Positions 22,339 through 34,713 of a DNA stretch of 43,840 bases are shown here, in pieces. Both the position numbers and the translations under genes were made by a program. The DNA is from Promethearchaeota archaeon (GTDB lineage Archaea; Asgardarchaeota; Lokiarchaeia; Sigyniarchaeales; SOKP01), in assembly GCA_008080735.1 (NCBI GenBank), contig SHMW01000028.1, positions 1 through 43,840 on the forward strand, given 5' to 3'. Position 1 is the first letter of the stretch, and every line of letters starts with the position of its first letter. Below the pieces are notes generated by a model, which ran no database searches, was not told where the DNA came from, and worked only from the letters and a program-made list of their open reading frames with translations.

Positions 22339-23010
22339 ATGAACTTCGAAGAAAAAAGAAAGGAATTAGTTGAGAGTTTGAAGGACCGGGGGATTTTAAC
22401 GCAGCAAAATGTAATTGATGCCATGCTCAAAGTACCGCGAGAATTATTTATCCCTGAGGATGTCAAATCTTCTGCGTATGTGGATTCTCCATTGTCAATA
22501 GGATCGGGTCAAACAATTAGCGCACCCCATATGAATGCGATGATGTGTGAAATTCTCGAGTTGAAAGAGGGAGAAAAGGTTCTTGAAGTGGGAACAGGTT
22601 CGGGATATCATGCTGCGTTATGTGCCGAAATAATCGCTCCTCCAGATTCTAAATCTCCGGGTCATATATATACAATAGAGCGGCATGAGGATCTAGCAGA
22701 AAATGCACGCGAAAATTTTAAGAAAACGGGTTATGATGAGGTTATCACGGTAATTGTAGGAGATGGGACTTTGGGTTATGATAAAGAAGCTCCTTATGAT
22801 AAAATATTAGTCACCGCAGCCTCGCCCAGCGATATACCTTCACCTCTAAAAGATCAGTTGAAAGAGGGGGGTATTATGTGCATACCCGCGGGCTCCAAGC
22901 GATTCACGCAATATTTATATAAAATCCAAAACATTGACGGAGAAACAAAAAAGAAAAAAATCACAGGTGTGAGATTTGTCCCTCTGATGGGAAAACATGG
23001 ATTTGAGTAG
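22339..23010 (+). CDS. pcm: Protein-L-isoaspartate O-methyltransferase
   Basis: VPRELF, GQTISAPHM, VLEVGTGSGY, APYDKILVTAA, VRFVPL. Confidence 0.96.
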   Translation: MNFEEKRKELVESLKDRGILTQQNVIDAMLKVPRELFIPEDVKSSAYVDSPLSIGSGQTISAPHMNAMMCEILELKEGEKVLEVGTGSGYHAALCAEIIAPPDSKSPGHIYTIERHEDLAENARENFKKTGYDEVITVIVGDGTLGYDKEAPYDKILVTAASPSDIPSPLKDQLKEGGIMCIPAGSKRFTQYLYKIQNIDGETKKKKITGVRFVPLMGKHGFE

Positions 23011-23011
23011 A

Positions 23012-23179
23012 TTAGCTTATTTTAGAAAACTTGTGTTTTTCGCGTCTCTTTTTCATTAGATGCTCACGAACATCTTTAACATACTTGCTCCTGTTTATCT
23101 TTTCTTTTAAATAATCCTCGCATTCTTTCCAACACCCTTCTGTATTACATCTGATTTTACATTTATCTATTTCAACCAT
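23012..23179 (-). CDS. 55-aa Cys-rich microprotein (family member 1; not in ORF track)
   Basis: MVEIDKCKIRCNTEGCWKECEDYLKEKINRSKYVKDVREHLMKKRREKHKFSKIS; SD GGAGGAG at 23193-23187; homologous to the adjacent ORF. Confidence 0.85.
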   Translation of the reverse strand: MVEIDKCKIRCNTEGCWKECEDYLKEKINRSKYVKDVREHLMKKRREKHKFSKIS

Positions 23180-23362
23180 AATTAATCTCCTCCAGATTTA
23201 AATACAACCCTTCTACATAAAATGTATGAAAACTAAGCAATATTAAGGTTTCTCTTATGGTTTAAAATCATTAATTCCATGAGATACATAAATAATAATT
23301 TAATTTATGTTATTTTTTTCATGAGCTAAACCGCTAATATATATTTATAAAATAATCAAATT

Positions 23363-23518
23363 CTAATGATTTAATTTTTCACGCTTTTTTTCCATTAGTT
23401 TGTTTCTTATCTTATTTACAAATTTACTACGATTTATCTTTTCTTTTAGTGAATCTTCACAATCATTCCAACAAGCTTGGATAGAACATACAGTATTACA
23501 TCTAAAGGTCTCAGACAT
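23363..23518 (-). CDS. 51-aa Cys-rich microprotein (family member 2; not in ORF track)
   Basis: MSETFRCNTVCSIQACWNDCEDSLKEKINRSKFVNKIRNKLMEKKREKLNH; SD GAGGAGGT at 23534-23527; 26/51 identities to member 1 without gaps. Confidence 0.85.
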   Translation of the reverse strand: MSETFRCNTVCSIQACWNDCEDSLKEKINRSKFVNKIRNKLMEKKREKLNH

Positions 23519-23662
23519 TTCTGTAGACCTCCTCAAAAATGATTAATTACCTTTCTTATTCATAACACAAAATAAAGATATTATTAGTGTTTTTATTATA
23601 GCCTAAAAACCAATCTAAGTTATTCCAATAAAAATTAAGTTTGTATTCATTTTACTTTTAGA

Positions 23663-23773
23663 GATTAATCATAAAAGAAGTGAAATAGATTAGCAAAATC
23701 TTATTTATTGAACTTCTTATTCATCAATTTTTTCCTAATATTTTTGAGATTTCAGTCTTTTTCTAAAATTCTT
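23663..23773. repeat. Left copy of direct repeat: non-coding remnant of the 3' end of microprotein member 3 and its downstream flank
   Basis: 23692-23750 identical to 32247-32305 (59 bp, offset 8555) with imperfect flanks; minus frame reads *VRILEKD*NLKNIRKKLMNKKFNK*. Confidence 0.92.
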
Positions 23774-23866
23774 ACCTATCCATATCATTAACACTCGAAG
23801 ATTATATCGATATGGGAAATTATTTCTAATAAGATTAAATTGAAATTATGAATATAAAAAAAAAAA

Positions 23867-24841
23867 TTAAAAATCTTCCAAAAAAATTACTTTTCCCTCA
23901 TTCTCAGCAGATTTAATTGAAGCCAAACATACTTTAACAGCCTCTTTGGCCTCACGTGGAGAAAGCAAAAACTTTTTTTCTCTATTTACTATCACATCAA
24001 AAAAGTGTTCTAATTGATTATAATAGGCATTAGCTGATTTATACACATCTTCCATCTGGAGATCTTCCTTATTATATATTGTTTCTTCGTCAAATTCAAT
24101 ATACCCATCAGATCCAATTATTTTTGTCTTCATTAATAATTCGTAATCTTCTGGTTGCGCCCAACTTGCCTCGCATTCTGCATTAGCATTTTGATAATTT
24201 AAATTTGTTATAGATTCACCAAATAAATCCATACCGTATTTATTAATTTTACTCGCTTTACAAGAAACAGATATGGGAGTTCCTAAAATCCATAAAATAT
24301 AGTCAATATCGTGTATTGATAGGTCTAATATAACTCCTCCAGATTTTTTTTGATCTGCGAACCATTTACTCCAGGGAAATGTGCTAAGTCTCTTTGAAGA
24401 AATTGACTGAATTGTACCAATTTCAGAATTATTATTCTCCAAATAATATTTAACATTTGCATATGTCGACCAGAACCTCAAACTGTGTCCAACAAAAAGT
24501 TTAATATTATTTTCCTTCATTGAATCGATGATTTTATCACATTCAATCACATTACGAGCCATTGGTTTTTCTAAAAAAATGTCTATTCCTTTTTCAGCGC
24601 AAGCACAAGATATTTCTTGGTGAGTATGCGTAGGTGTAGTTATCATTGCAATATCCAATTTTTCTTTTTCGAGCATCTTATCATAATCCTTGTAAAAAGA
24701 AATGTTTCTATGACCTCGAACCTTTTTTTCAGTTCGAGAGAACACTGAGGTTACTTTGACATTGGGAAAAATCTTCAAAATTGCCATATGAATTTTAGCA
24801 ATATATCCATATCCAATAACTCCAACTTTTAATTCTTCCAT
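23867..24841 (-). CDS. Gfo/Idh/MocA family oxidoreductase
   Basis: VGVIGYGYIA Rossmann motif, ITTPTHTH, IFLEKPMA, SGGVILDLSIHDID. Confidence 0.94.
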   Translation of the reverse strand: MEELKVGVIGYGYIAKIHMAILKIFPNVKVTSVFSRTEKKVRGHRNISFYKDYDKMLEKEKLDIAMITTPTHTHQEISCACAEKGIDIFLEKPMARNVIECDKIIDSMKENNIKLFVGHSLRFWSTYANVKYYLENNNSEIGTIQSISSKRLSTFPWSKWFADQKKSGGVILDLSIHDIDYILWILGTPISVSCKASKINKYGMDLFGESITNLNYQNANAECEASWAQPEDYELLMKTKIIGSDGYIEFDEETIYNKEDLQMEDVYKSANAYYNQLEHFFDVIVNREKKFLLSPREAKEAVKVCLASIKSAENEGKVIFLEDF

Positions 24842-24875
24842 TTTTTGAATATCCCTCTTTTCTAAAATTTATTAA

Positions 24876-25937
24876 TTAAGCTTTATCGTAAGTCAAAATT
24901 ACTTTTATAACTTCTTCAGGATTATTATCAATTAATTCGTACGCTTCTTGTGCTTTTTGAAACGGTATTTTATGTGTTATAAAATTTTCAATACTGAGCT
25001 TATTTTCCTGAAATAGTTTTATAACAACATTGTGAATACGATCCCTGTCCCAATTTGGATATCCTCTATGAGGACAACCCCAAACTCCCATACTCGAATA
25101 TAATGTAATTCTGTTGTGGTGCCATTCTTCTCCTAATCTTAATCCCTCTGCACTACCTTGATAAAAACCAGCCGCTACAACAGTTCCAGCCATTTTGACA
25201 CTTCTTATTGCATCATGAAGAGCTTTATAGTTTCCAGATGCCTCAATAGCGATATCTGCCCCCTCGTGAGAATCATTGGTTTTAAGTTCCATCCCCACAT
25301 CACAGTCAATTGGGTCATAGGTTTTATTAGCACCTAATTTTTCAGCTAGAGCTCTTCTTTTTGGAATAGGATCGACAGCGTCTATCCAAATAGCTCCATT
25401 TAGCTTGGCAAGTTGTAATATTATTAATCCTAAAGTTCCCAAACCAAAAATAATAATTCGATCTCCCAATTTTATGTGAGCGTCATGAACCGCTTGTAAT
25501 GCTACACCCGCTAATGCTAAAAATATTGCTTGATCGGTATCAAAATTTTCGGGTAAAGGTTCAATTTTTCCGTACATCGTCTCCATATCTTCAAAAAAAG
25601 TATGACTTGTTCGATGTCCTAAAGGTAAATGAACTATGTCGTCTCTTTTAAATTTTTTCACATTTTCTCCTATCTCTACAACTCTACCTACCCATTCATA
25701 GCCTAAGTTCATGGGATATGAGCTAAAGTTCTCACCCTTTAGAAATAATCTATTTTTCAGGTCAAAAATCTTATCATAAAAAGGAGCAGTCCCTTTAAAT
25801 AGATTTAGCTCGGTTCCATGACTTATCCCACTAGCAAGTGCGTTAGCTCTAACTTGGTTTGGTTTTAATCGTCGCTCTCTGCAAGATTTATATTCAATTC
25901 TATTTGGTTCTTTTATTATTATTTCGATCGGTTTCAT
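24876..25937 (-). CDS. MDR-superfamily dehydrogenase of the SxGTE/GY subgroup lacking canonical catalytic Zn ligands
   Basis: SGISHGTEL and LGYEWVG instead of C..D/GHE; GLGTLG NAD motif; ADIAIEASG. Confidence 0.9.
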   Translation of the reverse strand: MKPIEIIIKEPNRIEYKSCRERRLKPNQVRANALASGISHGTELNLFKGTAPFYDKIFDLKNRLFLKGENFSSYPMNLGYEWVGRVVEIGENVKKFKRDDIVHLPLGHRTSHTFFEDMETMYGKIEPLPENFDTDQAIFLALAGVALQAVHDAHIKLGDRIIIFGLGTLGLIILQLAKLNGAIWIDAVDPIPKRRALAEKLGANKTYDPIDCDVGMELKTNDSHEGADIAIEASGNYKALHDAIRSVKMAGTVVAAGFYQGSAEGLRLGEEWHHNRITLYSSMGVWGCPHRGYPNWDRDRIHNVVIKLFQENKLSIENFITHKIPFQKAQEAYELIDNNPEEVIKVILTYDKA

Positions 25938-25979
25938 TTTTAATCAATCAAATTTGTTAAATTTTCAATATTCTAACCA

Positions 25980-27413
25980 TTATATATTTTTCTCAATCAA
26001 GATTTCTTGTATTTTCAATTTTTTTGCTCCATAGATATCGTAGAACAAAAGGAATAGAATTCCCGCAATTAAAAGAAGAATTGCTGGAATGAGTCCAGTA
26101 TGAACTCGAACGCCTGTTACGGCTAATTGTGTTTGTACAGCATTAGGTTCCTGTATATAACCTGTCGCAATATGAACTATTGCAATAATCGCCGCTACAA
26201 TAAGGTAAGAAAATCGGAAAAAGAAATTTGCGATCCCTTGAAGGGTCGCGTCTTGATGTGCTCCTGTGGTGGCCGTTATTTCATCGAATGTGTCGGATAT
26301 GATGGGAAAAAGGATGATTGCTGGAGCGCTGTAGCAAAAGCCGACGAAAAATGCGCAAATGATAAATTGTAAGGGTGTAATTAACCATAAAAATGGTAAC
26401 AAAGCTAAACCCATAAAAATATATCCGTATCCGTATACCCTCCAATTTCCTATTTTCTTGCTAATCTTCAGCCATAGCGGAATTGCGACTAAAAATCCCA
26501 CTATAAAAGCTAACCATCCATACATCAAAAAATCAGTACCTTGCCCCAGTACATCCTCGATAAAATATAATTGGGAAGCGTAAAATAGGTTATATTCAAT
26601 TGCAAACAAGAAATAGGCTATAATGTAGACGATAAAATTCTTTTTACTCAATGCAACCTTCAAAATCTTTATTAACGATAACTTTTTTTCACCGGTCTCC
26701 TCTCGACCAACTAAATAACATTCCTTTACATGATCTGGTTCTCTAATCCCCGGGATAATTATAATGGCATTGATAAATAGAATAACCATAGTTATCCCAG
26801 AAGCAAGAACGAAGGATTCTTTGTTGCCAAATTCAAGAAAATTTGGTAAAATAATTGCATTAACCAAAATTAATCCCATCGTAGAAAATATTAATGCAAA
26901 AACCCCAAATTTTCTTCTAGAATTTTCTGTCTTAAATATCGCAATAGCACCTGCCGTAAGATTGGAATTGAGAATTGTATAGCATGTATCGAAAAGGCAA
27001 ATGGTCACAATCATATATATAAAAACTGGTAATGGATTTGATTTAGCATCAATGTTTGGGGGGAGGAATATAATGAAAAACAAAAAGGCAACAGAAAAGG
27101 CTCCGAAAATTATCCATGGAGTCCTAAAACCGTATTTCCCAATACTTTCTTTAGATCGGGGTTTTTCCGTTAAAAAAGCGATTAATGGATCATTAAATGC
27201 ATTCCAGACAGCAAAAATTCCAAAGGCTAAAGCAACATAAAAAACTGCAAGACCAATTTCAACTTCATAAAAGTAAAACACAGTCACGCCGTATATTGCG
27301 ATAATCATCGAATCGATTAACCAAGCACTAGTATAAGAAAGTATTTTTCCGAGAGAATGATTTGATCTTTCCTCGAGATTTTTTACTTCATTTATCTTAA
27401 CTTTTTCTTCCAT
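25980..27413 (-). CDS. MFS transporter, GPH/MelB-like sugar:cation symporter
   Basis: WNAFNDPLIAFLTEK, YGFRTPWI, PIISDTFDE; ~12 TM. Confidence 0.9.
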   Translation of the reverse strand: MEEKVKINEVKNLEERSNHSLGKILSYTSAWLIDSMIIAIYGVTVFYFYEVEIGLAVFYVALAFGIFAVWNAFNDPLIAFLTEKPRSKESIGKYGFRTPWIIFGAFSVAFLFFIIFLPPNIDAKSNPLPVFIYMIVTICLFDTCYTILNSNLTAGAIAIFKTENSRRKFGVFALIFSTMGLILVNAIILPNFLEFGNKESFVLASGITMVILFINAIIIIPGIREPDHVKECYLVGREETGEKKLSLIKILKVALSKKNFIVYIIAYFLFAIEYNLFYASQLYFIEDVLGQGTDFLMYGWLAFIVGFLVAIPLWLKISKKIGNWRVYGYGYIFMGLALLPFLWLITPLQFIICAFFVGFCYSAPAIILFPIISDTFDEITATTGAHQDATLQGIANFFFRFSYLIVAAIIAIVHIATGYIQEPNAVQTQLAVTGVRVHTGLIPAILLLIAGILFLLFYDIYGAKKLKIQEILIEKNI

Positions 27414-27646
27414 TTTAAAAACAATTCTCTACATATTATTAAGTCTAAAAAATTTAAGGCTTGATTATAACAATTTTTTAGATATAAATATAATAAAATT
27501 GGCATCATATATAAATGTTCGAAAAATAGTACCTTTTTCAAATGTTCGGATAAAAAATTTTACTGTGAAAAAATAAAAATCAAGAGGGATAAAGGATCTC
27601 TGATTCTTTATTCATATATATTAAAATATCTATCGTAAAAATGAAA

Positions 27647-28795
27647 TCAATATCTTCCAAATTCTTGGATTGCTTGAAAGAGAGCAATTATATTTTCTGG
27701 CTTCTGATCCAACAACCAATTTGTTGGTCCCGGAATATATCCTCCATCTTTCCCAAGCATCTTAATTTTATTTTGAATATCATTTCGAACCTCTTCAGGA
27801 GTACCATTTACCAGAAGATTAGTATCGTCGATAGTTCCTAAAAGTGCAATCTCTGGAAATTTTTTACGATATAGCTCTAAGTTGTTAATTGTAGGTTGAA
27901 GAGAATCTATACCATCAATGCCTAATTCCACAAAATCTGGAAAAAGCTCTTCGATAGCACCACAACAATGTAACAGAAATTTAACTCCAGATTCATGTGT
28001 TAATTCTACATATTTTTTCAAAATTGGTTTGAAAAAAGATTGCCAATGCTTTAGGGGTAGCTGAAGACCTCCATTATGACCGATATCACTCCCAATCATT
28101 ACTATCTCGGGTTTAGTTTTTAATAAGAGTTCTAAAGAAGGGCGTTGAAAATTTTCCCATAAGAAATTAATGTGTTTGTGTAAAAATTCAGGATCTTTTC
28201 TGGCAAGTTTCGCAAACATAGCATAACCTATTCCTAACACACATGTTTCAAATGGGCCATTGATTCCTTGTGCCACAACTATATCGTATTTTTTCATTTT
28301 CTTACGATTTTTGGAAAGTATTTTAAAACGCGCTTTATCTGGTCTTAAATCTTTTTGAGTTTCCCAAAATATTCTTATCTTCTCTTTAGTAGTTAAAGAA
28401 GGCGCAATATACCAATAACCCGGAATTCCATCATCGTTCACGATAAATTTAAAGATTTGGCCATTTTCAGTGACTAATGTATCAGATTCTGTGCCTTTTT
28501 TGAGAGGTATTCCATAGAGAACTTCCCAACACAAATCGATTTTAGCGTTTAATCCTCCCTCGTAAATCTCTTTAGGTGAGAATTTTGCCAGTAAATGCTG
28601 CGTGTGAAGAAAACGAGGAACAAGACCATCCTTGGCGAAATGTTCCAAATCTTCTTGAGTGAATGCATATGGAGAACGCATGAAATGATTTAGAAATTCA
28701 AAATCCGCCCCAAGACAAATACTTGGAACCCGATCGGGAACACCTCCTTCTAAAACGATATTTATTCTTTCAAAAGCAGTTAATTCGTCTTCCAT
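27647..28795 (-). CDS. Uroporphyrinogen decarboxylase-like / MtaA-CmuA family (corrinoid methyltransferase-like) protein
   Basis: PDRVP, GPF, SDIG, LLHCCG, GIDSLQP, GTPEEVR, GGYI motifs. Confidence 0.85.
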   Translation of the reverse strand: MEDELTAFERINIVLEGGVPDRVPSICLGADFEFLNHFMRSPYAFTQEDLEHFAKDGLVPRFLHTQHLLAKFSPKEIYEGGLNAKIDLCWEVLYGIPLKKGTESDTLVTENGQIFKFIVNDDGIPGYWYIAPSLTTKEKIRIFWETQKDLRPDKARFKILSKNRKKMKKYDIVVAQGINGPFETCVLGIGYAMFAKLARKDPEFLHKHINFLWENFQRPSLELLLKTKPEIVMIGSDIGHNGGLQLPLKHWQSFFKPILKKYVELTHESGVKFLLHCCGAIEELFPDFVELGIDGIDSLQPTINNLELYRKKFPEIALLGTIDDTNLLVNGTPEEVRNDIQNKIKMLGKDGGYIPGPTNWLLDQKPENIIALFQAIQEFGRY

Positions 28796-28797
28796 TT

Positions 28798-29166
28798 TTA
28801 AAACACGCTCGCTATAGCTCCTAAGTAAATTAAAACTTTATTATCGTTGATTTTTACGGTATTTTGCGATATTCCTTGAAAAATTTTATCAGCTCCTTCT
28901 AAAAGAAGATCTGAGGGAATAGCAAGATAGTAGTCGTAAAGATTTTTTGCTTCTTTTATATCTACTAAATTCATTATTTCATTTTCTATTTTTATGGAAA
29001 AATCTCCTTTATCTATACAAATTAGAAAGGCTGGGGGAGCATCTGTAATTAAAACTAATATTTTTATTTCAGTATCTGAATAATCTTTTTCCAATATCCC
29101 AAGTTCCTTTAAGATATATAATCCAGAATACATTAATGCGGGAAAACCAGTGTATTTTGCAGACAT
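28798..29166 (-). CDS. Hypothetical protein, possibly SCP2 sterol-carrier-like fold
   Basis: Size and alpha/beta pattern (ILVLITD..PAFLICIDKGDFSI...VKIND); fold call is a weak impression. Confidence 0.45.
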   Translation of the reverse strand: MSAKYTGFPALMYSGLYILKELGILEKDYSDTEIKILVLITDAPPAFLICIDKGDFSIKIENEIMNLVDIKEAKNLYDYYLAIPSDLLLEGADKIFQGISQNTVKINDNKVLIYLGAIASVF

Positions 29167-29403
29167 TTTTTTAACTATCTCAATATTAAAATTTTTTTCC
29201 TTCTATATATAAGTTTAACATTTGATATTTATATACTTTATCAAACCTTCGAAAATAGCCTAGATTTTAATTATCAAACGATTAACAAACTTTGAAAGGT
29301 TATTCTACTAACATAAAAGACTTCTAAACTTTTTTTAAAAACTCTGTATAAAAATAAAAAAAAGAGAATTGATTTTATTGAACTGAATTAATTGAATCCC
29401 TTT

Positions 29404-30159
29404 TTAGGATAAAGCAATTTTTCTTACCCACTGAGGTAAAGTAAATCCAATATAGAAAAATATTCCACCAATTATCCTAAATAAATAGACAAATATAATG
29501 AGTATCAGTAAATTTAGCCACCCCGACGTTAAAGTAACTCCGATAACAGCTATACCTGCTAATGCCGTTGTTAAAATGCCAATTAATAATAGCTTTCCTT
29601 TTATTTTATTTTCTACGTTATCCGTTTCGAAACATTGATAAACGAAAATGCTTGCAGTAAAAAGCATAATAACCGAAGAAATAAGGATCAATGATGAAAC
29701 AAGTATTGACCATGTAGTATAAATTCCCCCTTCAGTAGTGGCAACCATATCTGGATCAATGAACCATGCACCTATATAAATCAAAAACATGACGCTTGAT
29801 ATAACTATAGCGCCAATTTTTGTAAATTTAATCAATCTCTCTTTCATGGATATCAAACTTATGACACCAAATAAGAAGAACATCAGCGAAAAAAAGAATG
29901 GACTAAACATTAAATAGATGATAGGATCCGCAAGGGGTGTTCCGATTATTAAAATTTTAAAGAAAGAAATTATCCAGCCAATAGCCGTTACTCCCAATAG
30001 GAGAAAAGTGAAACTAAAATGAATCAGTTCAACCATTTTGTATTTGCGATACTTCCCGAAGAATAATCCGCTTAATATAAGATTTATTATAACGTAAGCA
30101 CATTGCGAAATTATAAATATGTATTCTTCTAACCCTAAGAGGACCATATTTTTTAGCAC
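29404..30159 (-). CDS. Stand-alone ~7-TM membrane protein
   Basis: Seven hydrophobic segments, C-terminal YIGFTLPQWVRK; no soluble domain; start may be the ATG at 30147. Confidence 0.75.
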   Translation of the reverse strand: MLKNMVLLGLEEYIFIISQCAYVIINLILSGLFFGKYRKYKMVELIHFSFTFLLLGVTAIGWIISFFKILIIGTPLADPIIYLMFSPFFFSLMFFLFGVISLISMKERLIKFTKIGAIVISSVMFLIYIGAWFIDPDMVATTEGGIYTTWSILVSSLILISSVIMLFTASIFVYQCFETDNVENKIKGKLLLIGILTTALAGIAVIGVTLTSGWLNLLILIIFVYLFRIIGGIFFYIGFTLPQWVRKIALS

Positions 30160-30306
30160 TTTGTTTATTGAAGACTTAACTAAACTTTTTTATTGTTAAT
30201 TAAATTATCTTTGAAGTGTTATAAATATATTAATATTTTTCATATATTTTCAAATGTTAGATAATATTATATTAAATCATACTTAAAAATTTTAATCCAT
30301 ATATAT

Positions 30307-31053
30307 ATGCCAAAAAAAGAAAATAATTCTTCGGATAAGAGACAAAAGTTTGAAGATTTAATGGATGATTTAAACAGAAGTATTAAAGTTATGGAAATCT
30401 TAGATAGTGTCCCTCGTATCCGAATTGCTCTATTATTGCTCATTTATCAAAAATTAAGCTTAGCCCAATTAAGTTCTCTTCTAAATCGTTCAAAAGCAAC
30501 GGTCACACACCATCTTAAAAAGTTCGAAGATTTAGGACTACTCAATATTACGAGAAAAGACGCTAGAGGCTCAATAGACGCTAAAGTGTACGAATTCAAT
30601 TCTGACTTTTTTAAATCTGTTCAGCTAAGCATGGATGATTTAAAATCGATAAAACCTGAAGAAGCGAAAAACATATTTAAAACTGCCATTAGAAAAGATC
30701 AGCTAATATTCGAATTAATTAAAAATATCTACGAAATATCAGATGATTTTTATCAAGGGATTCAGACATTATTAGATACTAATTCTCTTGAAAATATTCA
30801 AAAAAAATACTTTAAATCTCCGATTAGTTATCAATTTTGGTTTTTAGATGAGGAAGGTTATGAATCGTACGAAAAATTAATAAATGAATTTAATAATAAG
30901 ATGAGAGAAATCGTCAAAAAATCAACTCAAAAAAAGCCAGAAGAAATTGAGAGATCTTATTGTATCTTTCATTCATTCTTACCCTTAAAACATATTATAA
31001 AATATGATTTGCGAAATAAGCGATTTTTAAAATTTCTCGGCGTTTTCGACTAG
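30307..31053 (+). CDS. ArsR-type winged-helix transcriptional regulator
   Basis: RIRIALLL...LSLAQLSSLLNRSKATVTHHLKKFEDLGLL; divergent from the cassette genes. Confidence 0.88.
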   Translation: MPKKENNSSDKRQKFEDLMDDLNRSIKVMEILDSVPRIRIALLLLIYQKLSLAQLSSLLNRSKATVTHHLKKFEDLGLLNITRKDARGSIDAKVYEFNSDFFKSVQLSMDDLKSIKPEEAKNIFKTAIRKDQLIFELIKNIYEISDDFYQGIQTLLDTNSLENIQKKYFKSPISYQFWFLDEEGYESYEKLINEFNNKMREIVKKSTQKKPEEIERSYCIFHSFLPLKHIIKYDLRNKRFLKFLGVFD

Positions 31054-31398
31054 ATTTTAATCATTATATTTGATTTTGTAATTGAATAATTCCAGATTTT
31101 TTATCATTTTTAATTCCAAAAATACTTCCATTAGTACTTAACTTCCAGAAAAAAAGTTTTATCATCAAATTCCTCTTGAACTTATATTTCAATTTTTAAA
31201 TGATTAGCTTTCGTTTCCCATTCAGGGGATAGATGTTAATTTTCTCCCAATCTATCGAGTTATTATAAGATCCTCAAGAAAAACTTCTATAGCAGTAAAA
31301 TCTTTAATAAATCAATATCCCAATCTAAGATAAGAAAATTCTATCGTTTGGGTTCCTGAATATAAGTTTATATTGATAATTTAGATAAAATCTGGGAC

Positions 31399-32031
31399 TC
31401 AAATTTCAGCCAATCTCTTGATGCGTTTTACACCATCAATGGCGTCTTCTGCAAAATCGTCTGCTCCGAGCTTACTAGCCAAGTCCATATTTAAGGGAGC
31501 TCCGCCTACGATAAGCTTGACTTTATCTCTCAAACCCGCATCTTGCAAAGTTTTATGAACTGTATTTATTTCTTCTACTGTCATCGTTAATAAGGAACTT
31601 AATGCCACAATGCTAGCCTTAGTATCCTTTACTTTTTCTACAATTGTAGTTTCGTCCACATCCATACCCAAGTCAATAACTTCAAATCCAGAACTTAATA
31701 ATAATGAAGCGAGGATATTTTTACCAATATCATGATTATCTCCTTTCACCGTAGCGAGAATTACTTTCGTTTTGCTTTGTGATTTATCAGCTGCTGCCAA
31801 GGCGGGCTGCAATATTTTGAACGCCTCTTTCATTGTTTCGCCAGCTAAAACTAATTCCGTCAAGTAATATTCTTTTTCTTCATATCTACGACCTACTTCA
31901 TCCATACCCAATGTTAATGCTTTTAAAACTTTGAATGGATCTTTAACTTCTTTTAGAGCTTCTTTTACAGCGTCAGCAATATCTTCTATTTCTAATTCGA
32001 TAATCAATTCTGTTAAGGTTTCTAAATTCAT
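31399..32031 (-). CDS. Methyltransferase cognate corrinoid protein (MtaC/MttC-like)
   Basis: Cap domain GMDEVGRRYE..EYYLTEL; DxHxxG motif GDNHDIGKN; DLG, LSSL, VGGAP. Confidence 0.95.
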   Translation of the reverse strand: MNLETLTELIIELEIEDIADAVKEALKEVKDPFKVLKALTLGMDEVGRRYEEKEYYLTELVLAGETMKEAFKILQPALAAADKSQSKTKVILATVKGDNHDIGKNILASLLLSSGFEVIDLGMDVDETTIVEKVKDTKASIVALSSLLTMTVEEINTVHKTLQDAGLRDKVKLIVGGAPLNMDLASKLGADDFAEDAIDGVKRIKRLAEI

Positions 32032-32217
32032 TTTTGTAGTATTTGATTAATTAGTCAATTTTTTTTATTTTTTGAAAATCATACATTTTATATAAATGCT
32101 TTTTTTCTAATGTTAGAATTTTCGACTTGAATTTTTCGATGATGAAGATTTAAAAATAATAAAGATCGAAAATAAAAAATTTGATAATATCTACTCGATT
32201 TAGTTAAATATTTTAAC

Positions 32218-32329
32218 GATTAATCACAAAAGAAGGGGATAAGAACAGCAAAATCTTATTTATTGAACTTCTTATTCATCAATTTTTTCCTAATATTTTT
32301 GAGATATTCGTTCTTCTCTAAGCATTCTT
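32218..32329. repeat. Right copy of direct repeat, overlapping the 3' half of microprotein member 3
   Basis: 32247-32305 identical to 23692-23750. Confidence 0.92.
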
Positions 32330-32393
32330 CTAGAGTTTTATTGTTAAACGTCCAGCTTGACCTTCTGTATGGGTTATGGCGATAATCTCTCAT
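32256..32393 (-). CDS. 45-aa basic microprotein (family member 3, lacking the Cys motif; not in ORF track)
   Basis: MRDYRHNPYRRSSWTFNNKTLEECLEKNEYLKNIRKKLMNKKFNK; aligns without gaps to members 1 and 2 from the conserved W onward; TTTAAATA TATA-like box about 50 bp upstream; no clear SD. Confidence 0.7.
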   Translation of the reverse strand: MRDYRHNPYRRSSWTFNNKTLEECLEKNEYLKNIRKKLMNKKFNK

Positions 32394-32529
32394 GAGTTTA
32401 AATTGATGTTTTTTTACTTCTAGTTTTAGATGGGTTTTCTAACTATTTAAATGTTAAGAATTTCGACAAATTGCATAAATGGTGGTGAAAAAGGAGGAAA
32501 AATCATAAAATTTAAAAAGGATAAATTAA

Positions 32530-34713
32530 CTACGTGATAGTCAACCTTATCTTTACGGTAAAATCTTTTTCAAAATTGAAAATAGGAATCACATTAGTCC
32601 CCTGGTAGATGTTCTTATATCCCTCATCAGTCCAGGTATATGAGATGAGGGGAAATTTGGAAATTTTGTGCCGAAGTTCAGAATCGATTTGGACTTCGAA
32701 AGTAAGGTCATATGTCTTATCATATGCGCTAAAATGAGAACCAATATATTCAAATTGGTCTTGAAGTTGATTATCCTTTATTAGATGCTCGTCCAAATCG
32801 CTACTTTTCCAAGAAAATTTCTTAGGATCTCCATTAAAGAAGAAAGGAATATCAATCCCAAAATTAAGACGTTCTAAGAATTGTTTTAAATTCTTCTCTA
32901 TTAGGGTTGAATTCTTCAATGTCCCAGAAAGTATAATACTGATAACATTTTTCTCAACTTCAATTTTTTTTTGAAGGTCCAAAAGATAGGTTTTTTCAGA
33001 AGTAATATCCTTTATTTCTCCTAATTTTTCCAAAATAATGGTTGCATTTTCCCCATCTTTTTCGGATTTCTTTACTTCAAAATCTAAATCGGGGATATTT
33101 GAGTACTCAGCATAAGTATCCGCCGCTAACTCGTCCAGAGAAGTATTGTCTTGAAAAATTCTGAATCTGAGCATACTTCTTCTGAAGCGATCAACAGATA
33201 TTTCGTTGTTTTCAATTTTTTCTTTTTCGTGATAGGCCTCCTCCCAACGCGTGAGAGTATTAAGCAGATTATAGGATTTAGGCTTATAATCCAGTTCAAA
33301 AATGGTTCCACCTTGAGCAGGATCTATATACAGATTTAGTGTGTCCGATTCTAAAATCAGTTCAGATCTACTTTTTTTATAGAAATCAACAGGTAAGACA
33401 CTCATATATGAACCAAGCTTTGGATATATAAGTTGATTAATTTTATCAATGAGATTTTCCGCATTAATCAATCGTTTGTATATTGCGAATCGTAAGAATT
33501 GTAAATATACACCCCCGAATAGTCCGTGCCAATATGCATCATTACATTGGGCTTTATGGATTTCTTCCCAAGCCTCTTCGACTTTTTTTCTAATTGTATC
33601 TTTTATGGTCTTATCCTCGAGACTCTTTAATTTATTTTCGAGTCCTATTAGCTTTTCACGGATATAAAGCATTTTTTTATGCATATTATTTGATTCAGGG
33701 TATTTTACCAGAAAATATCGCCAAAACCCTCCCTTTAAAAACATATAGAGGTCTTGTTTTTCTTCGCTTTCCCTCAGCTTATCTCTATAATCTTCAAAAT
33801 TCCTGCGGATTTTTGTTGGCAGTACCCATTCTTCCATTTTATCATAAGAAGCCGTTGGCAGATAGACCAAGTCTTTTGCGGGGAATTTCTCCATGTATTC
33901 AGAGAGAGTGATTGATTTTATCCATTCATTATCTCGGATTCTTCTAAAGAGCATAGGAATAAAGGGTTTTCCGCTATCACCTTCTTCATGTCCGCAGCCC
34001 TCATTATAACAAATTTGATGGGTCGAACCCCACACACCCATTTTTTCTGCATCCGAGATTAGAAGTGCCATCCTATCTCCTTTCTTATCGGCGATGGTTT
34101 TTAAATGATCTATAGTCTGTGTCGTAGGTTTCCAGGGAGTTAAATAACGGAGCTCTTCATTTATGGGAAAAATTCTTAGCGTTTTTCCTTCATCCTCGGT
34201 ATTATAAGAATAAAGAGTCTCTTCTTGAGAAATGCCCGTGGATCTGAAATGATTATCATCAACTATAACATATTTCAATCCTGCCTCGACTAAAAAGGAA
34301 GGATAATTCGGTTCCCATACCCTTTCGGAAAGCCAGGCACCGTTTACTGCCAAATGAAATTCCTTCTCTATTAATTGCGTAAGCTTTCTGATTTGAGCAA
34401 TCCTATCACGTCGAGGAATCACCGCATAAATAGGTTCATAATATCCTCCCCCGATAATTTCAATCTGTCCTCTGTGTGCCATTTCTCGAATTTTATTAAT
34501 AAATTTTGGTTTGTTCTCTAGAAACCATTCTAAAATATTTCCCGAAAAATGAAGCGTAACTTTTATCTCTGGAAAGTTATAGATATTTTGTATTAATGGT
34601 TTGTATGATTTTTGAAAACTCTCCTCAAAAACCCACGGAAAATTATCTACTGGCTGGTGAAAATGGAAAACAATTGGAAAATAGATACTTGGTTCTGTGT
34701 TGGTTTTACTCAT
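32530..34713 (-). CDS. GH57 alpha-amylase / 4-alpha-glucanotransferase
   Basis: HFHQP, GGGYYEP, WLSERVWEP (nucleophile), SDAEKMG (acid/base), AQCNDAYWHGLFGG. Confidence 0.95.
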   Translation of the reverse strand: MSKTNTEPSIYFPIVFHFHQPVDNFPWVFEESFQKSYKPLIQNIYNFPEIKVTLHFSGNILEWFLENKPKFINKIREMAHRGQIEIIGGGYYEPIYAVIPRRDRIAQIRKLTQLIEKEFHLAVNGAWLSERVWEPNYPSFLVEAGLKYVIVDDNHFRSTGISQEETLYSYNTEDEGKTLRIFPINEELRYLTPWKPTTQTIDHLKTIADKKGDRMALLISDAEKMGVWGSTHQICYNEGCGHEEGDSGKPFIPMLFRRIRDNEWIKSITLSEYMEKFPAKDLVYLPTASYDKMEEWVLPTKIRRNFEDYRDKLRESEEKQDLYMFLKGGFWRYFLVKYPESNNMHKKMLYIREKLIGLENKLKSLEDKTIKDTIRKKVEEAWEEIHKAQCNDAYWHGLFGGVYLQFLRFAIYKRLINAENLIDKINQLIYPKLGSYMSVLPVDFYKKSRSELILESDTLNLYIDPAQGGTIFELDYKPKSYNLLNTLTRWEEAYHEKEKIENNEISVDRFRRSMLRFRIFQDNTSLDELAADTYAEYSNIPDLDFEVKKSEKDGENATIILEKLGEIKDITSEKTYLLDLQKKIEVEKNVISIILSGTLKNSTLIEKNLKQFLERLNFGIDIPFFFNGDPKKFSWKSSDLDEHLIKDNQLQDQFEYIGSHFSAYDKTYDLTFEVQIDSELRHKISKFPLISYTWTDEGYKNIYQGTNVIPIFNFEKDFTVKIRLTIT

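Follow-up and report, generated by a model that had tools for sequence, protein, structure and literature searches.

The window analysed here, a 43,840-nucleotide stretch of contig SHMW01000028.1 from a Promethearchaeota archaeon, raises the question whether three very short open reading frames on its minus strand are genes, to which family they belong and what their products might do. The three frames of 55, 51 and 45 amino acids are present as the original prediction described them: m1 (23012..23179, minus strand) and m2 (23363..23518, minus strand), both type A in the nomenclature used below, and m3 (32256..32393, minus strand), a type B gene. A gapless consensus from the Trp onward fits all three proteins, in alignment as well as by eye, and the identity of 26/51 residues between m1 and m2 was borne out. 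The frames had been called an unannotated family of three members. The first term holds for m2, which is found only in a JGI record, but not for m1 and m3, which are contained in NCBI nr; a near-identical protein from another MAG is deposited at NCBI as a hypothetical protein. The second term is right in that the trio is related, but the family is lineage-wide, comprises two ancient types and has left a fourth, degenerate copy in the window. In the 4.1-Mb genome a profile of the trio found only the three loci (E 4e-28, 9e-28 and 3e-22) and a remnant at 23704-23766 (E 4e-4).

The signals around the frames are those of separately expressed genes. The strong Shine-Dalgarno sequences claimed for m1 and m2 were confirmed: GGAGG lies at 23189..23193 and at 23528..23532 (both minus strand), in each case 9 nt 5′ of the ATG, and SD-like 5-mers precede 14 of 29 type A genes in relatives. 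For m2 an alternative TTG start at 23536 would give 57 instead of 51 amino acids; because this TTG lies upstream of the GGAGG motif, the ATG is the likelier start. Upstream of m3, a TATA-like box (TTTAAATA, 32444..32451, minus strand) is located 58 nt 5′ of the ATG. Such a box occurs between -75 and -45 in 46 of 47 distinct B upstream regions, and its start positions are clustered, mostly at -63 to -65 (35 of the tabulated matches). The type B gene thus appears to have its own promoter, most B genes having such a box at a constant spacing from the start.

That the frames are not genes at all, but reflect conservation of an RNA or of regulatory DNA between GH57 and PIMT, or arise by chance, is suggested by the base composition, since AT-rich DNA (GC about 31%) favours long open frames, and by a few B orthologues that have no canonical start codon. 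Substitution patterns argue strongly against it. Mean pN is 0.30-0.37 and thus far below pS of about 0.70, and the median dN/dS of 0.28 for type B and 0.44 for type A indicates purifying selection. Protein-level selection on m1 and m2, claimed from the LKEKINRSK block, is seen in different codons at 12 of the 26 identical residues, including five of the nine in this block; synonymous sites between the two genes are saturated (pS 0.79, pN 0.26). In six-frame searches of Asgard genomes, open stop-free frames were found at the syntenic site in 116 of 134 species genomes of one Lokiarchaeia family with the trio profile, and in 115 of the 134 with the B profile; frames are therefore kept open in more than 100 genomes despite saturated synonymous sites. 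A scan of 22900-23900 gave no Rfam match, the conserved promoter and Shine-Dalgarno signals stand at the right distances, and the protein core is retained by paralogues located at unrelated sites. Although every sequencing run listed as containing this stretch is a DNA run from marine sediment or tidal flat and none is RNA, we regard the non-genic reading as close to refuted by these comparisons, and the three frames as what their sequences indicate, genuine protein-coding genes under selection that belong to an undescribed family.

The distribution of this family is narrow. Among 265 other genomes of the phylum, probably including that of a cultured Lokiarchaeum, the six-frame profile search gave no convincing match; weak matches in three of them (G242, G214 and G371) were partial, inside larger ORFs or stop-bearing, and were treated as chance. 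All 14 genomes of the family that probably holds the cultured Lokiarchaeum were without a microprotein match, and the PIMT loci of three genomes of that family showed neither an adjacent GH57 gene nor a microprotein gene. Translation or proteomic tests in cultured Lokiarchaeia, as the original prediction proposed, would therefore probably fail, in strains of Lokiarchaeum and Promethearchaeum alike. The microproteins are also absent from genus g2 of their own Lokiarchaeia family, which, like the sister family f3, has no GH57-PIMT linkage and may therefore be an early branch. All 100 of 100 matches among 1.8 billion representatives are 35-101 amino acids long, from which we conclude that the family is never fused to other domains. 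The microproteins evolve faster than the neighbouring genes and, with type B alone at 23 of 70 loci, their copy number varies. Restriction to one family, variable copy number and fast evolution together fit an accessory or regulatory role better than a role in core machinery.

Comparison of the members points to two old paralogue types, B (m3-like) and A (m1/m2-like), which are parted by one tree branch with a support of 94/93 and are homologous to each other according to hhalign (97.9%, E 4e-13). Type B is the more widespread of the two. They differ in their cysteines: 52 of 56 type B proteins are Cys-free, while at least four Cys near the Trp are found in 27 of 35 type A proteins. Overall, type A proteins have 3-5 Cys clustered around the conserved Trp, at -3/-1, +2/+3 and +10 relative to it, and since these positions shift between genera no single metal site can be drawn. 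In the window, m1 has four Cys around Trp17 and a pI of 9.4, and m3 one Cys and a pI of 10.1. m3 is orthologous to the widespread B gene and m1 to the sole type A gene in a genome of the same genus (G155); m2 arose by duplication of m1 within the genus.

In relatives the gene order is GH57 → B → A ← PIMT; it is shared by at least 12 genera and is very probably the ancestral arrangement. Both synteny anchors are present in the window: the GH57 α-amylase/4-α-glucanotransferase gene (32530..34713, minus strand) is the co-directional upstream neighbour of m3, and the gene of protein-L-isoaspartate O-methyltransferase (PCMT, PIMT; 22339..23010, plus strand) converges with m1, the two stops being 1 nt apart. 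Between B and A, an eight-gene block (23867..32031) is inserted that is absent from this position in relatives. Pfam identified a GFO/IDH/MocA oxidoreductase, a URO-D-like protein and a B12-binding protein in it; translations read by eye suggest alcohol-dehydrogenase-like, transporter-like membrane and HTH-like proteins, and two ORFs are of unknown function. Next to the type A genes lies the degenerate fourth copy, a type B pseudogene (23640..23845, minus strand) with four in-frame stops, indels and a start codon changed from ATG to ATT, in which nothing but the final 16 codons (23704-23751) has stayed intact. Direct repeats at 23656..23766, comprising a B-gene 3′ end with 3′ flank, and at 32211..32321, comprising the 3′ end of m3 with its 3′ flank, are 86% identical over 111 nt, including an identical stretch of 59 nt. 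The 8.5-kb gene block sits inside the old array and separates m3 from the decayed B copy and the A genes. A possible cassette-free variant would join 23691 to 32247. The origin from a tandem array, which had been proposed from the three frames, is supported.

Known families do not account for the microproteins, as the original prediction had anticipated. The HMM search matched no characterised family, and searches of curated collections remained without a match in NCBIfam and PADLOC and gave sub-threshold noise only in Pfam-A (DnaA_N and KIX_2, 14 bits each). The best PHROGs match (E 0.0017) was to a family of unknown function, and profile searches of PDB sequences gave nothing below E 0.5. 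With structures, the best Foldseek match had an E of 9.6, a hairpin of 45-55 amino acids being too small for a fold search to decide, and the best VIA-align match of this very small hairpin (Z 3.0) was to generic helices only. No description of the microprotein family was found in a full-text literature search.

Several individual resemblances were followed further. In a language-model look-alike search with a typical type B protein, clusters of Cir_N, the N-terminal motif of eukaryotic CIR1 and CWC25, ranked first with a score of 0.79, a range also reached by shuffled proteins. By eye, both share a basic stretch, a Trp and then [ST]-L-K-x-N. However, the Cir_N model (PF10197) gave scattered weak hits of at most 18.5 bits in 135 genomes (cut-off 22.6), never on the B/A loci, and among 29 type B proteins it had no match at E ≤ 10. 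A distant archaeal kinship of type B with this motif of spliceosome-associated proteins is hardly credible. For m1, the look-alikes in the Atlas were viral clusters without a name (0.84), but a viral origin was rejected because the B and A profiles found no relative in IMG/VR, none was found among GenBank phages and the PHROG matches were weak. Many type B proteins start with MG; N-myristoylation of this start was discarded, as the NMT model stayed below threshold in this genome (21.9 bits; cut-off 25) and m3 has no MG start. The twin Cx3C motifs of m1, m2 and the type A protein of G155 recall the small Tim proteins (zf-Tim10_DDP), in which two Cx3C motifs are placed on two helices, 11-16 residues apart. 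In the microproteins the motifs are 4 residues apart and there is no Pfam match, and membership was dismissed since only some members of a single genus show the exact pattern, the Cys positions being different elsewhere.

Two further known systems were compared. The ribosome modulation factor RMF (PF04957) of Gammaproteobacteria, an analogue and not a homologue, is a basic protein of about 55 amino acids with two helices that acts by settling on rRNA. The microproteins are similar in size, strong basicity, two helices, a free-standing gene with its own promoter and restriction to one lineage, but they do not match PF04957 in Pfam, and RMF does not have the Trp and Cys features. The small zinc-finger proteins of Haloferax are of the CPxCG type, e.g. 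HVO_2753; like them the microproteins are archaeal and shorter than 70 amino acids, and the 3-5 Cys of type A could bind metal. Unlike them, the microproteins have no CPxCG or CxxC pairs and are predicted to be helical instead of forming a zinc ribbon, and type B is Cys-free.

What the proteins might do has to be read from their composition and predicted fold. The proteins have 45-55 residues, a pI of 9.3-10.1, 12-17 Lys and Arg residues and net charges of +5 to +8. AlphaFold2 predicts a loose N-terminus followed by a hairpin of two helices, the second of them rich in Lys/Arg, with block-mean pLDDT values over the helices of 80-97. The N-terminal tail is poorly conserved, the Trp is near-invariant and one Arg is invariant. 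The swappable N-termini of the original prediction are, like its nucleic-acid or ribosome binding, speculative. In the model, the small hydrophobic core of the hairpin consists of Trp, Leu, Ile, Tyr/Phe, Val, Ile/Val, Leu and Met; the invariant Arg could be a structural residue, for example by pairing with the conserved Glu of the first helix in a salt bridge, and not a contact residue. The description as basic amphipathic helices fits the short first helix (µH about 0.5), but not the long basic helix, whose µH of 0.15-0.33 is no better than that of shuffled sequences; the µH of 0.16 of the type B consensus helix was reached or exceeded by 69% of shuffles. This also bears on a reading of the microproteins as cationic membrane-active peptides, toxin-like or antimicrobial, which is favoured by their small size, strong positive charge, helical AlphaFold2 models and several dispersed copies. 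A long helix with a hydrophobic moment not above shuffles, translations that by eye contain no signal peptide or hydrophobic segment, and loci with neither a conserved antitoxin-like partner or antisense arrangement nor a PADLOC match make such peptides very unlikely.

The best explanation as a whole, which we hold with slightly less than even confidence, is a lineage-specific microprotein family acting as polyanion binders. Its parts differ in strength. Very probably, judged from the sequences, the trio represents translated, separately transcribed, lineage-specific microprotein genes encoding a hairpin, with an A/B duplication, an ancestral locus and a block insertion. In each protein, a short helix of amphipathic character and a long one rich in Lys/Arg would fold into a mini hairpin. 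An early duplication would have led to Cys-free type B and Cys-rich type A; at the GH57 → B → A ← PIMT locus of this genome, the type A gene would have been duplicated and the array split by the 8.5-kb block. The free-standing protein would bind a polyanion through its basic second helix, with RNA, the ribosome or DNA as the most likely target, and type A would add a metal- or redox-sensitive Cys site. This functional part, a free-standing RNA, ribosome or DNA binder with type A as its metal- or redox-sensitive variant, is drawn from charge, fold and Cys count and is a tentative possibility. The net charges make an A-B heterodimer without a polyanion unlikely. Sequence and fold searches showed no similarity to nucleic-acid-binding families.

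Alternatively, the microproteins could be regulatory subunits that tune a larger protein or complex, such as the neighbouring α-glucan enzymes or PIMT. Small proteins acting in this way are common in bacteria and archaea, and the fast-evolving, lineage-specific pattern suits an accessory regulator. The conserved gene order would place a partner on either side, and one genome (G075) has an extra type A-like copy downstream of a GH77 4-α-glucanotransferase gene. In the largest genus, the B proteins start with a tail rich in Asn-Gly, the dipeptide from which isoaspartate, the target of PIMT repair, classically arises. However, m3 has no Asn-Gly and the GH77 case is a single instance. The whole neighbourhood of 8-10 kb (x575-GH57-B-A-PIMT-U32) is syntenic, so that adjacency is little informative, and the dispersed paralogues of other genomes adjoin unrelated genes (malate dehydrogenase, NAD synthase, aIF2-α, Mrr and others). 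The neighbourhood thus points to no specific partner. Moreover, the microprotein genes are served by promoters of their own, and at its A end the array meets PIMT tail to tail. We consider regulatory subunits somewhat unlikely and prefer polyanion binding. A bolder form of the latter, in which the microproteins originated inside a single uncultured family of Lokiarchaeia as a new RNA- or ribosome-binding class and type A is a metal or redox switch on the target of type B, is unlikely.

In conclusion, Asgard archaea have been studied for the traits that they have in common with eukaryotes, and the small proteins specific to their lineages have hardly been explored. New in our case is the family and not a mechanism, and orphan families of this kind are numerous. 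The locus provides an example of a small-gene array as a site for segmental duplication and gene-block insertion. The family described here is a clean and well-bounded case, with proteins of about 5-7 kDa, purifying selection, apparent promoters of their own and an old split into Cys-free and Cys-rich types, and its members are small enough for chemical synthesis and hence for work on binding, metal and structure.

The original prediction described three minus-strand ORFs, and an ORF listing together with direct reading recovered all of them: m1 (23012-23179, 55 aa), m2 (23363-23518, 51 aa) and m3 (32256-32393, 45 aa). From the conserved Trp onwards they match the proposed gapless consensus. 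The reported identity of m1 and m2 (26 of 51 residues) was reproduced, with different codons at 12 of the 26 identical residues, and the Shine-Dalgarno sequences announced for these two genes are present as GGAGG 9 nt upstream of each ATG. The ORFs belong to a real, previously undescribed microprotein family that lies outside every curated family testable. By the Nei-Gojobori method the median dN/dS was 0.28 for m3-like proteins (type B) and 0.44 for m1/m2-like proteins (type A), with a mean pN of 0.30-0.37 against a pS of ~0.70, which is near saturation; the postulated selection at the protein level was thus borne out. On sequence grounds it is nearly certain that the family is coding. That the ORFs are non-coding is extremely improbable, and Rfam has no match in the m1/m2 stretch.

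Allowing one mismatch, a TATA-like TTTAAATA was found at -75 to -45 in 46 of 47 distinct type B upstream regions, clustering at -63 to -65; m3 itself has a TATA-like box at -58. Among 29 type A genes, 17 are preceded by a TTCTTATA-like box and 14 by Shine-Dalgarno-like motifs. Type B genes have a conserved GGTTTT in their presumed 5' leader, at roughly -13 to -8 relative to the ATG, where a canonical Shine-Dalgarno sequence would be located. In five type B orthologues (loci L012, L028, L034, L035 and L036), the interval from the in-frame stop upstream to the conserved core contains neither ATG nor GTG nor TTG; they keep 'ATT AAA' opposite 'ATG AAA ATT AAG' of a sister genome and may initiate at AUU.

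The family is broader and older than the three members originally envisaged. The suggested six-frame profile search for preserved frames, applied to 161 genomes, gave stop-free matches in 116 of the 134 species genomes of the window's family, covering 12 of 13 genera, and in none of the 26 genomes from other families of the class. A type B profile run against 400 genomes of the phylum was positive in 115 of the same 134, and outside the family it produced three partial matches only, located inside larger ORFs or containing a stop. Genus g2 of the window's family lacks the genes (0/5 genomes), and in three g2 genomes the linkage between GH57 (alpha-amylase/4-alpha-glucanotransferase) and PIMT (protein-L-isoaspartate O-methyltransferase) is missing. 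The sister family f3, which probably includes a cultured Lokiarchaeum, had no match in 14 genomes, and at the PIMT loci of three of its genomes neither GH57 nor a microprotein gene adjoins. The genes are probably absent from the cultured strains in which testing had been suggested. All named records derive from uncultured MAGs labelled Lokiarchaeota or Promethearchaeota. NCBI nr already contains m1 and m3, and the type B proteins of public collections form 96 clusters, all unnamed or annotated as 'hypothetical protein'.

Two types can be distinguished among the recovered ORFs. Type B proteins have ~47 aa, end in a Lys-rich helix, show an R-N-G-W-like turn in most genera and are free of Cys (52 of 56), while type A proteins carry Cys at -3/-1, +2/+3 and +10 relative to the Trp, with at least four Cys in 27 of 35. 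Comparison of the two profiles by hhalign shows that they are homologous (97.9%, E 4e-13). In the tree, m1 and m2 cluster with type A genes from the same genus. Because one branch (support 94/93) separates A from B and the genus groupings are broadly mirrored on either side, the split agrees with one duplication at an early stage of the family's spread. In a third subfamily (L090, L092, L093, L094) Tyr or Phe replaces the Trp and two Cys are present; a flavodoxin-domain gene lies near three of the four loci, two of which also have a malate/lactate dehydrogenase gene nearby.

Across the window's family the genes keep the order x575 - GH57 - B - (A) - PIMT - peptidase U32. Synteny extends to the entire block, and having GH57 or PIMT as a neighbour is therefore hardly informative on function. 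Of 70 loci, 45 contain B+A, 23 B only and one B+A+A, and the PIMT-side locus of the window contains A+A. Other genera hold more divergent paralogues dispersed at unrelated loci, beside genes as different as malate/lactate dehydrogenase, NAD synthase, an Lrp/AsnC regulator, an Mrr nuclease, aIF2-alpha, a CDC48-like ATPase and, once, a GH77 4-alpha-glucanotransferase. This single case (L091, G075:C40, 2411-4867) places an additional type A-like copy downstream of a second alpha-glucan enzyme and in the same orientation. In the window, PIMT (+) and m1 (-) end in stop codons 1 nt apart, at 23008-23014 (11-35 nt in relatives); overlap of the two convergent transcripts, or a common terminator, is unavoidable. 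Asn-Gly is the dipeptide most prone to deamidation, and the resulting isoaspartate is repaired by the methyltransferase encoded by this convergent neighbour. In genus g12 the N-terminus of type B proteins (e.g. L022, L027, L030) contains three Asn-Gly pairs in a stretch of 12 residues, which we regard as a curiosity because m3 has none.

A profile of m1, m2 and m3 matched only one further site in the 4.1-Mb assembly, a remnant at 23704-23766 within a degenerate fourth copy (23640-23845). The last ~60 nt of coding sequence and the 3' flank of this copy resemble m3 (86% over 111 nt, with an identical core of 59 nt); in its 5' half the ATG has become ATT, and indels and four in-frame stops are present. 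Between m3 and this decayed B copy lies an eight-gene cassette (23867-32031). Assembled contigs of one sediment run (X1) span the left junction (23341-23866), and one contig of the sister run X2 connects 23691 to 32247 over the 59-nt repeat, omitting 8555 nt. This joint represents either the cassette-free ancestral order GH57-B-A, in which case the 8.5-kb block would be polymorphic for presence and absence, or a collapse of the assembly at the repeat. In G153, a genome of the same genus, the locus (L086, 2480-6652) contains GH57, a type B 3' fragment, two GH57 C-terminal pseudo-fragments, B, A and PIMT, an independent segmental duplication different from that of the window. The genes were therefore originally a tandem array, as predicted, and this array has been rearranged repeatedly.

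The microproteins had no match to a curated family, a PDB sequence or a fold, in agreement with the initial failure to recognise a family, and all 100 matches among 1.8 billion representatives were 35-101 aa long. Two leads from a language-model search, Cir_N and a viral one, failed testing. AlphaFold2 with family alignments modelled a mini-hairpin, in which 15-20 low-confidence N-terminal residues are followed by a short and then a long helix (block-mean pLDDT 80-97 over the helices). The predicted amphipathic character holds for the first helix, but the long basic helix is no more amphipathic than shuffled sequences.

The product is free-standing, under selection and strongly basic (pI 9.3-10.1), with an old split into Cys-free and Cys-rich paralogues. 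As both types have a net charge of +5 to +8, a bare A-B heterodimer seems unlikely. The nucleic-acid role initially proposed is still a guess; it is conceivable, at a tentative level, that the basic helix binds a polyanion (RNA, ribosome or DNA). The main rival, in which the microproteins regulate a partner protein by binding to it, is somewhat doubtful, and a membrane-active peptide is quite improbable. Based on the Cys count, we consider the chances even that type A would carry a metal or redox site.
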